Assembly (NCBI GenBank): GCA_918797485.1
Contig: CAKKNE010000003.1
Location: 3,348,001-3,412,000 of the forward strand
Source: Pelagomonas calceolata
Lineage: Eukaryota
Reading direction: 5' to 3'
Length of the DNA: 64,000 nt
The translations under genes and the position numbers were made by a program. Below are positions 9,758 through 57,218 of this stretch, one piece after another (the first letter of the stretch is position 1; every line of letters begins with the position of its first letter). Under the pieces are notes generated by a model that saw nothing but the letters and a program-made list of their open reading frames with translations, was not told the origin of the DNA and searched no databases.

Positions 9758-10595
9758 TTGAGATTCCGATCAAATTACGGGTGGGCCATCTTTTAAGGAG
9801 TGTGTTTTGCAACTCATATGATCTATGATGAGTCAGGCTTAAAAAAAAAATAGAACACCCTGCGGCACCGCGGATACCTGCGGTACAATCTGGTACCTTA
9901 CCGTGGTACTGCTAGTAGGGTTGGAGTTGTTCGTGGTTCAAGTACAAGCTAGTAGGCCCCGGCCCGGCGTGGAAGGGTTACGAAAGAAGCGGGGAATCGG
10001 GAAGTAGCCGAATCATCCGAGTCCCAGGTCCCCTGTGAAATGAAGTAACCATGCCAGTGGCGCATTTTGGGGAACTCAGAGGCTCAGGCTGTAATAAGCC
10101 CGCGTCGCCCGAGAAAAGAAATACTTTTTTGTCCTCGGAGGTCAAGGGCAGCTGTTTGTTGCGACTCAGGCCAAATGACTCGTGGGGAATGAGGAAATGG
10201 GGAGTGCCGATCGATGGCCTGAATTGACGAAAAGTCACGCCTAGAGGTCTTCAGAAACATAAACAGCGGAAGGAGTAGCTTCGAGATCCTCATCCACTTA
10301 TATGCGCTGGCCAGGGGCGGCCTCACCTCACCTTAGTACCTTTGTTTTCTTCGTGGGAAATTTCTGGGTTGAAGCTAAAAACGGGGAAATGCCCCTTACT
10401 CTTCACTTGGCTCCAGAGTTCACGCGGTTCCACCTGCTCTTTTTCATAGACTTCGAGTGAGTCAAGGGCTATAGCAAGCGGCGCCAAATTCTGGATTGAT
10501 ATGTCAGCTTTTCATGAAGGAGGTACTCTCTTTGACAATTTTTTTTGGGTTTCGCCGATAGCCGCGATCTTCTTCGCCCTGCATAATGTCCTAAT

Positions 10596-12196: not shown

Positions 12197-12304
12197 CTCA
12201 GGCTCCGAGTCCGAGTCACTGGCACTGGCAGGCCTCAGGCTGTTGAGATGACTCGGAACCGTGACTTGAACGGGTACCTCAGTCTCCGAGTCCGAGTCAG
12301 GCTG
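12197..12304. repeat. Cluster of rule-generated octamers (XY-C-rc(XY)-G-XY), tandem and nested
   Basis: CTCAGGCT 12197, TCCGAGTC 12204 and 12210, CACTGGCA 12217 and 12223, CTCAGGCT 12234, GACTCGGA 12250, ACCGTGAC 12258 nested inside AACTTGAA. Confidence 0.85.
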
Positions 12305-16345: not shown

Positions 16346-16737
16346 GACCCAGTGGCACCCTTGACTCGGACGAAATGAGTTAGTTAATGAGTTTGTTTCG
16401 TGCAAAAATTGTGTGTGTGTCTCAACTTGAATTGAGCCATCATGATCATGATCAAATACACCACTGGCTTTTTCAAGTTCACTGGCAAGTTCAGCTTGAA
16501 GATTTCAACTTGAAGGCCGTTCAAGTTCATGTTCATGATTTATGTGATGCCGCAATACTCCGACCCCTACTCATGCTGGCAACACACTCCGTAGCTTTCG
16601 TGCGCCCCGCGCACGCGTCCTATTTAACACCCAACCCCGATCCCTTCTAGCCCTTATTATATGTCACGGTATCTATACGCAGTACCGTTGGTAAGCCCCC
16701 GGCAGCACACCGCTTGGCAAGAAGCCAAGACACGCTA

Positions 16738-17765: not shown

Positions 17766-18937
17766 AGGCCTAGGTTGCCACTTACCCCAGGGGTTATTAA
17801 CCCCAATCGCGGCCCGGGGTCAGTAACCCGGGTAATTACCCGTTAGGACGGGTTATTAACCCCAGGATCTTATATCTAGAGGGGTAGGGGAGGCCCGGGA
17901 GGGGGCCTGGGCCGCGCCGGGCCACATGACTTGGTACTTGCCTTGGCGCACCTGTACGTATCCAAAAGCTCAACGGGCTGCTTGCGCCCATCCGCTCGTC
18001 CTGAGGGGTCTTTTGCTAATCTCACTAAAAACGGGTTTAGTCGAAACCCGTTATTGAGCGGGTTATTAACCCCGGATCCCCTCCGAGGGGTAATTAAATA
18101 ATTAAATTAATTAATAAATAAATTAAGGAAGACCTAAAAAAAGGAACAAGCCTAAGAGCCTTCTCCCTGCTCGGTCAGGATACCCAACCGGAGCTTCGAA
18201 ATAGCAATAAGATAACGATACAACGGGTTTTCAATCTCCCGGGGTGTCCCCCATGACCAGCCGACAGCGGTACTCGTCAGTCAATTGCCGTGCGAGGGGG
18301 CAAAAACCGAGTATAATCTCGCAAGAAATGCCTCCCGTTCTTCCTCAAAGGCCTCGCATCCAAACAACGTGTGTTGGATTGTTTCCGACTCGCGAGATTC
18401 GCAACAAGGGCATTGCGCGTTACGAACAAGCTGCATTCGGCAACTCGAGCTCCGGAGGTCGTGGCAACCCAATCGGAACTTCGTCTTCAATCTCCGCCCT
18501 TCCCGAAGAGACGAGGGGCACGTTCTGAGTAAATATTCCGGCAAGCCGAAACGTTCTTTCTCGGCCCAATTGCTCATGTTATGAAGGGTCGTCATTCAAG
18601 TTCTCTTGAAACCGTCGGCGAGCTCGGATACCCGGCGCGAGGCGACGAATTCATTGACGAACTTTTTCGCTGCCGGTTTTTTTAGAGGCCCGGGCCAAAT
18701 CGCTTCTAACGCAAGATTTTCCGGGAACAAAGCCCCGTTCCTCGACGATCCGCGACCTTTAGAATCATTCATCAGGCCGTCGTATACGCGGCGAACGAGG
18801 AAATCCCGAGGGTCCAACGACAAGATGTTGTTGCGGAATTTCAACGCCGCGGCGTTTATACGAGTTGCGACGGACGCGACTATAGGTTAATAACGGGTAA
18901 TTAATTAACTTGAACAGGTAAGTGGCAACCTAGGCCT
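17766..18937. mobile_element. Non-autonomous TIR DNA element with subterminal repeats, carrying a nested LINE fragment
   Basis: Perfect 21-bp inverted repeats AGGCCTAGGTTGCCACTTACC at 17766-17786 and 18917-18937; internal GGGTTATTAACCCC repeats near 17791, 17850 and 18060. The TSD is ambiguous. Confidence 0.8.
18091..18885 (-). mobile_element. 5'-truncated non-LTR retrotransposon (LINE) 3' fragment
   Basis: ORFs 18596-18844 and 18281-18595 are in the same frame and encode KFRLGCHDL...CPCC...ETIQHTLFGC, a C-terminal CCHC zinc-knuckle region typical of non-LTR RT ORFs; followed by a 3' UTR and an AT-rich tail. Confidence 0.8.
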
Positions 18938-19763: not shown

Positions 19764-19920
19764 TGTGTTTTTTTAAGGTACCGTAGGTACCCCCCTAGGG
19801 CGCAGTACGATTTCGAGAGATGCGCGCTTTGTGTTTTGAGGCGTATCTGGGTATTCTACCCCCTCATGTAGCTGCGCTAACCCTAATTAAACTGAATTTT
19901 CAAGACGGCATCGACACCAG

Positions 19921-20530: not shown

Positions 20531-21084
20531 ATGCCAGGGCCGGGAACTTGACCCAACCAATCTACTTGACGCGGAAACCTTACTATAATCCGATGTTTCT
20601 CTCAACGTAGAACTGAATCGTCCGCCCCAAGATTAGATTCAGAAGCACACGAGGACGACAGCACATGAGGACGAGATTAGGGGTTCTTATGATCCTGCAC
20701 CTCCGCCTAGCCTACTTGAGGACAACTCGGACCTAAAACTAGGCTACTTGATATATTTGAACAGGCCGTCGACTTTGCTGTGCAAAGCGTTAAACTTTGC
20801 CGAAGCAAAGCGTAATGACGTTCCGTCAGCACGTTGCGCCGCGAGAAATTCAACGTTCCGTTTGGCGAATCGAATGCTCCTCTGAACAAGCGGCGGCAGC
20901 ACAATTAGATTCCCATGGAATTCTTCAAGTTGCAGCTTGAAACAACTCTACTGGCAGCCAGGTGTCTTTGCGATGCCGCCTCAATGAAGTGAATAGAATC
21001 AAGTCCATTTCATTGGGCATCAACAATTTTCAGCAAGCAGGGGGACTTTGATTTCATCATTGGGGTTTCGACGTGAGTGCGGTC

Positions 21085-24096: not shown

Positions 24097-24643
24097 ACCT
24101 ACGAGCCCATACTACCGCATTCAGCTTACCCTAATCTCCCGTACTTAAGTATGAGCTTTGTAGACAATAAATAAATAAATACATTAAAAATCGAGCACGG
24201 AGGACACGCAATGGTCCACATAAATAAATAACCATAAATTAGCCTGACTCGGAGAAATCGAGGGCGGGGGAGGCATGGGGCCTGACCCCGATACAACTTG
24301 AATGGGCCCGGGCTCAGGCGGCCGCCGCCGCGGCTGTAGTCACGGTAGCGCGGCCTCCCCATTAATAGCCCAATCCCGGAAACTAGCTGCGACTGATCCT
24401 TAGGGGGTGCCTCACATTCTGGCGGAGTGGGGGCGGCTAAAAAAGCGAAGGGCCGGAAGGGCCCCCACGCGAACGTCGCGCCAGTGGCTCCCGGGCCTTG
24501 GCCCGGCGGCGTCACGGTTACGGTCACGGTTCAAGTTCAAGTTCGTGCCAATTCAGGCGACTATTTGGGCAACCATACAACAAAGGTCATCTTGTTTGCG
24601 TATCTTATCGAATCAGGGGGTGAAAATCACATCATGATCATAT

Positions 24644-24720
24644 CGAGCAGCCTGAGGGAGAAGGCTCTTAGGAGCTTGTTCCTTTTTTTTAGGTCTTCCT
24701 TAATTAATTTATTTATTTAT
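24644..24720 (+). repeat. Short 3'-end copy of the LINE at 18091-18885
   Basis: CGAGCAG[CCTGAG]GGAGAAGGCTCTTAGG..CTTGTTCCTTTTTTTTAGGTCTTCCTTAATT plus an AT-rich tail matches the reverse complement of about 18100-18173. Confidence 0.85.
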
Positions 24721-25124
24721 CTCACCAATTTGGGGTCAGGCCTGTCGAGTGTAGACCACGACTCCTCCGCACCGAGAATTCTCGAGAAATCCTGGGTAAA
24801 CCCGAATTTACGTCGCAAAGGACCTAAACGTGTTAGCGGCTCGGGAGGCGTGGTCTAAACGCGACAGGGGTCAGGCCCCTTGAGGACTTCCTTAGGAGGC
24901 AGAGCTCTGGAGACATCTCGCTTGGCGGCCTTCGCTCCCGGACCGTGACCGCGCCGTGGCGGCCGCCGCGGCGCCCCCGAGACTTCCCGGGCGCGATAAT
25001 TGGGGATTCATCCTTTGCAAACTTGTACCCCAACTCCCGGGGCGCGCGGGGACCTAAAAGCCCCGTCACCAAGCAGCGTCACCAAACAGGAGGGGGGGGG
25101 GGGTTCAAGTTACCTGTATCATGA

Positions 25125-54643: not shown

Positions 54644-56317
54644 TCAGAAATATGTTCCATCCTCGCCCCCGTGATCCGGCGGTACCTTGCGATGGAATGC
54701 TCGTATTTCATTGTAAAGCATTTTCTGTAGGCAAGCCTTGTTGAGCTTTGTTGCCTCGATATCATCAACCTTAACATGAAAACCGGCATCTTGCTCGAGC
54801 TCATACTCACGAAAGTCTTCGACGTACTTATGTTTGAGTGCCCCGCGAAGAGAGATGCGACCTTTTGGGTTGAACACAAGCATGCGCGCAAGAAGATTCA
54901 GAGCATCAACATCTTCAACTTTGGGAAATTTTATTTGGAAGTTTTGGGACTTATAATCAGGGAGCTGCAGCATAAAATTCATTGCGTTTTGATTGGAGAC
55001 AAACCAGAGATCTGCTTTACGTGGGCGGCCCAGTAATTTGACAATGAGCTTCAGTTGGTGAATGTAATCATTTCCAGGAAATACAGGCTGTAAAAGAAGC
55101 ATTTCACCGAAGATACATCCAATCGACCACATGTCGATTGCCTGGTCGTACGCATGGAAGCCAAGCATGATTTCAGGTGCCCGATACCATCTAGTGACTA
55201 CATATTCGGTATATTCTTGTGACAAGACTCCATCTACTTCATTATCACTTTTTGTTATCGTATTATCATCGATCGCCTCCTTTTGACCAGTGGTGCCTCG
55301 CGCCAAACCAAAATCACATATCTGTAGGTTGCATGTTTGAATATCAATCAGTAAATTTGATGGCTTAAGATCCCGATGGAGGACAGATGAGGAATTTATG
55401 TAGTTCATACCAGCAAGTAACTGATAAACAAGATACTGCATTTGCTCGCCGGTGAGTTTTGTCTTGGAATACAAAATTTTCTGTAGGTCAGTTGACATCA
55501 GCTCCGTAACAATATATAAATCTTCGAATCCTTCGATATATGGTGGTTCCATGATATCATAAAGTTTAACGACGTTCGGATGATTAAATTGACGCATTAG
55601 TCGCACCTCGCGCAGCATGCGCTTTGCATCTACCATGTCCTCGAATGCGTTTGCCACCTTTTTTATTGCAACCTTTTTGCCGGTCAAGACCTATGGGCGT
55701 TTACGTGAATAGGAATCAGACATGAACTTTTACATCATCTGCGGCAACAACGAATCCATACGCCCCCGACCCGACTTTGTTTAACAGTTTATACCTGGAG
55801 AAGAGAACATACGGATGTAAATGGTAATCCAATTAGAAGGCACTGACTGCACTTTGGGTCAACAAACCAATCAGTGCCAGAAAACTGAGGGTGTGTCGTG
55901 GTAAATACGATAGGTGGATTAAAATACACACGTGTACCATTGTTTGGCTAACAACTATCGATATGCAATCACGAAGGCATTTTATCCACCTGTCACGGTT
56001 TTCGTGCGTCTCCGAGGCCACTTTAAGTGCGCGGCCTGCCATACATTGTAACGTCACATTGTGTTCATACTACCTTTCAAGATTACTTGGAATGCATGCG
56101 GCCTGCCAAGGAGCAAGTCGACTTTTGTATCCGAAGTTAGCACAAGTGTTGCTCTGGCGGTGTCACTAAGATGGGTCTTTTCGTCCTTGAAGTATGTCAG
56201 TTGCGCTGGTTTTGTTCCGCTCTGACACAAAATAAAATAGCGCTTTTGCCATCTCATCCCACCCTTTTTTTGCAACATCCCCTCGCACTTGATATCTTGT
56301 TCAGAGCACAGAGCCAT
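54644..56317 (-). CDS. PH-domain-containing MAP kinase (TEY activation motif), multi-exon
   Basis: N-terminal EGMLQKKGGMRWQKRYFIL...RDRWIKCL (PH), spliced to GSGAYG, VAIKK, HRDLKPSN, DFGLAR and TEYVVTRWYRAPE. Confidence 0.9.
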
Positions 56318-57170: not shown

Positions 57171-57218
57171 GCTTGTTCCCTATTTTAGGTCTTCCTTAAT
57201 TTGGTCTTCCTTATTATT
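57171..57218 (+). repeat. Third, shortest 3'-end copy of the LINE
   Basis: GCTTGTTCCCTATTTTAGGTCTTCCTTAATT resembles 24674-24705. Confidence 0.7.

Follow-up and report, generated by a model that had tools for sequence, protein, structure and literature searches.

At positions 24644-24664 of the window, by which we mean the whole 64,000-nucleotide stretch of Pelagomonas calceolata DNA analysed here, a LINE copy reads CGAGCAG-CCTGAG-GGAGAAGG, whereas the reverse complement of positions 18159-18173 reads CGAGCAG-GGAGAAGG, without CCTGAG. The question raised by this locus is whether the six extra bases were gained by one copy or lost by the other and, if gained, what kind of process writes them. 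The difference had been reported in an earlier note on this DNA, and the window sequence bears it out: the sequences had been given correctly, although the positions were one base off. The reading of the change as AG becoming AG-C-CT-G-AG, a gain of six bases, is an exact fit to a general rule, in which a dinucleotide XY becomes XY-C-rc(XY)-G-XY, rc being the reverse complement. The description of the two copies as a direct before/after pair holds for the +6 insertion, which is real, but not for the copies themselves. That at 18159 has a private 2-base loss near 18150, at bases which the other 124 of the 125 copies listed have in some form, and this rules it out as parent or precursor of the focal copy. 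The two are independent paralogs, neither descended from the other, and it is the family that supplies the polarity.

The LINE family and the polarity of the insertion

The repeat is a LINE (APE-type non-LTR retrotransposon), as identified by its ORF2: the ORF end of the sister copy in locus L013 is 40% identical, over the whole query (E 6.9e-37), to P0096, a protein of 1486 residues that has PF03372 and PF00078 (AP endonuclease and reverse transcriptase). Among at least 125 copies, a 3' end with a simple-repeat tail is common to all and the 5' truncation is variable. The summed contig depth of the tail is 150-170x that of unique DNA in two runs, which is not a copy number and is taken to mean only "many copies". 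No match to the LINE pattern was found in viral or prokaryote collections.

In the copy at 24644 no more than 7 bases remain between the 5' truncation and the indel, and the reading frame of the last ORF2 codons is preserved by the +6 at 24651-24656, so the two-copy pair alone cannot give polarity. The family copies were therefore fetched with a pattern situated just downstream of the insertion site, the site itself being excluded, which returned at least 125 family 3'-end matches (123 in 120 metagenome loci and 2 in the window). CCTGAG is absent from 121 of the 125 3' ends among the matches listed. Grouped by 3' flank, an approximate procedure given that 18 matches have short flanks, the listed matches form 88 clusters, of which 81 lack CCTGAG with a good anchor and 5 are uninformative. 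The clusters with CCTGAG among the matches listed are the focal locus (the window, L006 and L103) and L089, which has it behind a 3-base anchor only and may represent a second CCTGAG event. The metagenome loci L006 and L103 share the same insertion at the same locus with the window, so CCTGAG is no assembly error.

As 81 of the 83 informative loci among the matches listed lack CCTGAG, the family consensus lacks it too; the comparison of LINE 3' ends that the earlier note had proposed as a check thus comes out in its favour, the insertion reading stands and the deletion reading falls. CCTGAG is confirmed as a true insertion into an old retrotransposon copy. About 0.09% of simulated insertions of random 6-mers obey the rule.

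Other repeats lie close to the two LINE copies. A 126-bp MITE at 24742-24867, with CTGTCG..CGACAG ends and a 9-bp duplication, adjoins the focal LINE tail; it is presumably Mutator-like, judging by TSD length, and copies of the same family in L061 and L070 are also flanked by 9-bp duplications. The long LINE fragment is bracketed by a 21-bp perfect inverted pair (17766-17786 and 18917-18937), and GGGTTATTAACCC words recur between the two arms; the LINE may have inserted into a MITE here.

Table 1. Positions of the LINE copies, scars and related sites in the window
Feature	Position	Strand	Remarks
Scar-built intergenic stretch	12197..12300	.	10 words start in ~100 bases
CA scar nested within a tandem TT scar	16480..16487	.	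Absent from part of the contigs, two marine metagenomes
Longer LINE 3' fragment without CCTGAG	18096..18840	-	ORF2 end with Cys/His knuckle, tail
Unscarred GA	18131..18132	.	Orthologous locus L100 carries a +6 scar here
Scar on AA/TT in LINE ORF	18595..18602	.	Creates an in-frame stop; three sister copies without the stop
Second scar class TA-CCG-TA-GG-TA (+9 at TA)	19779..19789	.	
Scar-shaped word on AT	24631..24638	.	Just upstream of the truncated LINE copy; assigned by shape; no empty allele seen
Short 5'-truncated LINE copy holding the focal scar	24644..24720	+	Last ORF2 codons, 3' UTR, AT-rich tail
Scar AG-C-CT-G-AG	24649..24656	.	Inserted bases 24651-24656
Third LINE fragment, tail only	57171..57202	+	Too short to span the insertion site

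One exact rule for +6 scars and a second scar at TA

A single exact rule, XY to XY-C-rc(XY)-G-XY with a net gain of six bases, is observed in its product, polarity, fixed centre bases, nesting and polymorphism. The window holds 185 rule words against 18.3±4.4 expected from 30 dinucleotide shuffles, and each of the other 15 centre pairs gives only 6-63 words compared with these 185 for C/G. In the window and loci taken together (331,780 non-redundant bases) there are 891 rule words versus 190 in shuffles, and all 16 dinucleotides occur as XY. Among three-part words with arms of 3-9 bases, no further class stands out once nested scars, the TA scar described below and the background in GC-rich sequence are set aside. 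When perfect words are removed, one-mismatch words still number 384 against 179 expected, and this persisting excess indicates a process that is old as well as recent.

The words are distributed very unevenly, with 7 in the 32,019 ORF bases of the window and 178 in the other 31,981, which corresponds to 5.6 per kb between genes versus 0.22 per kb in ORFs; this scarcity in ORFs can be explained by purifying selection alone. Scars are present in high-GC loci too. Per 1000 sites of scar-rich DNA, the rates are about 20 for AA, AG, AT, CA and GA, 16 for AC and 12 for CC, down to 6.7 for TA, 4.4 for GC and 0.5 for CG. The near avoidance of CG by the +6 scar, in DNA below 60% GC, amounts to 1 event in 1906 sites. 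Methylation may lie behind the low CG, GC and TA rates, or palindromic targets may favour shorter joins that compete with the +6 product. Products of +3 at palindromic targets (TA 110 vs 57, AT 77 vs 44) suit the model set out below but equally the decay of old scars, and were for this reason left out of its support.

That the rule words are insertions into pre-existing sequence, as the earlier note had proposed for them in general, is upheld by other LINE copies. Comparison with a LINE family reference (88 clusters from the matches listed, 13,538 matched bases) gave 11 distinct 6-bp insertions, a count from which a 10-base anchor filter left out the focal event; eight fit the rule exactly, two with one mismatch, and one does not fit. 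There was a single 6-bp deletion in the same comparison, and in one 12-bp insertion a second scar sits inside the first. One and the same TC site in the LINE 3' UTR is scarred in L028, L046, L073 and L065 and in L100, apparently two unrelated loci, and in L065 a second scar is nested in the first.

Indels were also compared between 55 near-identical pairs of loci, some of which may have arisen by recent duplication and not be allelic. The pairs comprise 156,326 columns (redundant) with 794 substitutions and 176 distinct indels, of which the 94 with clean flanks were retained; three of the events are shared with the LINE set. Among these clean indels the rule fits 7 of 8 six-bp and 2 of 3 twelve-bp events (P ~2e-11 at a chance of 2.1% each, the proportion of random 6-base deletions in non-coding DNA of the window that fit the rule, 681/31,834), and the rule scar is the commonest 6-bp indel in the data set. 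Two of the entries among 12 of the 30 metagenome indels are 6 letters long; one, at 16480, fits the rule, the other belongs to a complex insertion at 10179-10180, and the remaining ten are of other sizes. Scars are thus polymorphic in wild Pelagomonas and still segregating. Second scars occur at every internal dinucleotide step of a first one (26, in tandem, then 7, 5, 13, 9 and 6), as would be expected if the events were repeated, independent and nearly free in their target.

A second scar class, TA-CCG-TA-GG-TA, occurs 38 times against 0 in shuffles, and a 9-bp indel between L036 and L070 is such a scar. It stacks into arrays at the regenerated TA sites in many loci, for example L005, L062 and L074, and a search with the array gave no match among viral contigs. 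The class shares the three-part shape of the +6 scar, but its loops are longer and its target is strictly TA, and this combination points to transposase-like target rules that are easier to obtain with transposases than without them. Perfect fold-back insertions without a centre base are also seen, of 8 and 10 bases, in the L054/L063 LINE copy and in the window at ~24775-24790; they are a separate, rarer hairpin or template-switch product.

A probable excision footprint and its alternatives

Both RAG, through RAG1, and Transib leave the flanking DNA in hairpin form, and opening takes place a few bases beyond the hairpin tip. The +6 scar is probably the excision footprint of a CACTA/CMCT-like transposon with a 2-bp TSD and C...G ends, formed through flank hairpins and TSD microhomology. 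We infer all steps, from the element through the hairpin. The element would insert at almost any dinucleotide, duplicating XY; at excision, the 5' strand would be nicked one base inside each element end, leaving the terminal C on the flanks; the 3'-OH would then be joined across to the other strand, at the position where the element truly ends, turning each flank into a hairpin XY-C-rc(XY). If each hairpin were opened at least 2 bases past the C, the 3' tails ending in rc(XY) and XY, which are complementary because XY was duplicated, could anneal, and fill-in would give XY-C-rc(XY)-G-XY regardless of the flanks. The duplication of a nearly free 2-bp target is seen in the use of all 16 dinucleotides and in the empty alleles.

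The CMCT clade fits the scar on ends and TSD length. According to the accessible parts of the literature, some of its families combine C...G ends with 2-bp duplications, CA..TG ends, TSDs of 2-5 bp and kinship with RAG1 are characteristic of the clade (PMC12730594), and CAC..GTG elements with a 2-bp TSD exist (PMC6004678). A high excision rate and footprints have been described for a CACTA element (bioRxiv 447870, available part), and the related alga Aureococcus harbours an active RAG-like element, which differs in having 5-bp rather than 2-bp duplications (PMC9435367, available part). A published description of a +6-type footprint in the CMCT clade, or a published demonstration of a nick one base inside the element together with a flank hairpin, was not found.

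Footprints of Ac/Ds (hAT) offer a close parallel in hairpin and microhomology repair, which is established at their excision sites: in the available part of PMC5873905, odd palindromes on one unpaired base stand on both sides of the join and microhomology biases the outcome. The Ac/Ds footprints of that source differ in having a centre that is the complement of the flank base, where here it is always C and G, and in being varied (28 types in 128 clones), where here there is one dominant product with a 2-bp duplication. In the proposed excision of a C...G-ended element the duplication would force a single product, which would make the scar far more uniform than Ac/Ds footprints. The focal site itself reads C-AG-G and would suit a hAT-type footprint on a C-XY-G target, given the Ac/Ds palindromes centred on the complement of the base adjoining the element (PMC5873905, available part). 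However, C at -1 with G at +1 occurs in just 63 of 547 words, so the centre C and G are not derived from the flanks and a centre complementary to the flank base is rejected, and the polarised events have other flanks. A hAT duplication of ~8 bp was likewise rejected, there being no excess of three-part words with 7-9 bp arms. Replication template switching draws on local bases and so offers no route to an invariant C and G. Were the words a selected binding motif, neither the use of all 16 dinucleotides, nor nesting at each step, nor the disruption of a LINE ORF would be expected. We hold it very improbable that a hAT-type footprint, template switching or selected binding motifs account for the scar.

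Tc1/mariner elements are known as TA-specific. Excision might also proceed without a hairpin-forming transposase: a mariner-like enzyme with no target preference would leave each flank with a 3' overhang of a single C, which host repair would close or fold back into a hairpin. The TA scar would then come from the same repair at ordinary Tc1/mariner ends, where the overhangs would be of 3 and 2 bases. Such an origin appears unlikely, although several observations agree with it. Tc1/mariner and Stowaway footprints keep the 2-bp TSD on both sides together with terminal or terminal-like element bases (PMC4561436, available part), and one Tc1-like transposase is annotated in the species among the table entries listed (PMC9481584 supplement, available part); the TA class shows the three-part shape, its loops being longer, and there are plain fold-back insertions as well. 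XY-CG-XY, the direct join expected if no hairpin forms, shows no enrichment (118 vs 124±10), so fold-back would need to be near obligatory, and TA is among the rarest +6 targets, at the 6.7 per 1000 given above against ~20. Compared with Tc1/mariner and Stowaway as described in the accessible literature, the scar also takes any dinucleotide, retains one base per side and carries an inverted target copy in the middle. A plain Tc1/mariner footprint was rejected: TA is rare for the +6 scar and only the separate +9 scar is TA-specific, and what lies between the two target copies is an inverted copy of the target, not element-end bases alone. For mPing (PIF/Harbinger), the duplication itself is the microhomology that fixes the repair product, a likeness to the excision scheme proposed here, but repair restores the empty site, whereas here the net change is +6 (PMC4561436, available part).

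The element predicted by the excision model was sought in the window and 120 loci, ~1% of the genome, by inverted-repeat scans and repeat clustering, and no C...G-ended element with a 2-bp duplication was found there; the locus contigs, being short-read, tend to break at repeats. The scans gave the 9-bp-TSD MITE and several long-TIR or TA-flanked families, and the sole repeated C...G element in the window and 120 loci has 9-bp duplications. Of the ORFs compared with transposase families, 24 from the window and 144 out of 587 from the loci (drawn from 170 with GC <62%), none gave a match, and neither a CMCT element nor a CMCT transposase was found in this material. No large 2-bp-TSD insertion polymorphism occurs among the 55 near-identical pairs, whose short-read contigs break at repeats. 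Three candidates were set aside. A CAC..GTG sequence with a CG duplication in L021 is single-copy and inside a long ORF and was taken as chance, and a 1.7-kb insert in the same locus is without C..G ends. The third is a difference at 20537, where the window is without ~673 bp present in L006 and run X5 and a gene-like upstream frame is cut; it has no TIR and no 2-bp duplication. EnSpm, Plavaka, Harbinger and MULE proteins are likewise absent among the annotation-table entries listed (PMC9481584 supplement, available part), the gene prediction having been run on a repeat-masked genome (bioRxiv 2021.10.25.465678, available part). The genome is repeat-poor, ~6% (pangenome preprint), so a small element family must have jumped very often.

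Spo11 breaks have a 2-base stagger. A transposon-free origin would start from a host break of this kind (Spo11/topoisomerase VI type), whose fill-in duplicates XY; a dCMP transferase would add one C to each 3' end, and the ends would close as hairpins and rejoin on the 2-base microhomology. The lack of an element in the window and 120 loci accords with this, as does the clustering of scars between genes with little target preference, but that search covered only ~1% of the genome and purifying selection alone can account for the absence of scars from ORFs. SPO11/TopoVI-A, Ku70-like and Rev1-like genes, the components such a route calls for, are annotated in this species (PMC9481584 supplement, available part). 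Genes of these kinds are widespread, whereas the scar is not known from other organisms possessing them. The TA-specific CCG/GG scar is left unexplained, and we consider a transposon-free origin quite improbable. The same low expectation attaches to the broader proposition that a host nuclease with a 2-base stagger, together with a polymerase that adds C and the repair of hairpins, inserts one invariant six-base word into open DNA so frequently that much intergenic DNA is built of it; no description of a transposon-free mutator of such kind was found in any organism.

Genomic setting and significance

The window belongs to a gene-bearing part of the genome of ~50% GC, with the core genes CFAP43, a B9 domain protein, adaptin-N, a Rab-like GTPase and a MAP kinase; the kinase encoded at 54644-55687 shares 99% identity with a cluster that includes a Pelagomonas calceolata protein. 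The GC content fits the low-GC putative centromeric regions of P. calceolata (bioRxiv 2021.10.25.465678, available part). No earlier report of the +6 pattern was found in literature that leaves out most subscription journals. The main text of the genome paper (bioRxiv 2021.10.25.465678) makes no mention of footprints or palindromes, and that of the pangenome preprint none of transposons or indels. The scar is likely a very regular and very dense hairpin-type excision footprint, and its pattern likely new.

These scars represent a mutation type with a fixed, readable product in one of the most abundant ocean eukaryotes, and they fill whole intergenic stretches. Since the product is directional and nestable, it provides a clean marker for ordering strains and dating intergenic DNA. 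If the scar is a footprint, it reveals cut positions, one base inside the element with a hairpin on the flank, for a class of transposases for which no comparable data were found in the papers retrieved, and the element to seek has a 2-bp TSD and C...G ends. It would then also be a record of past jumps, by rough inference on the order of ten thousand per genome, of elements that are themselves gone.
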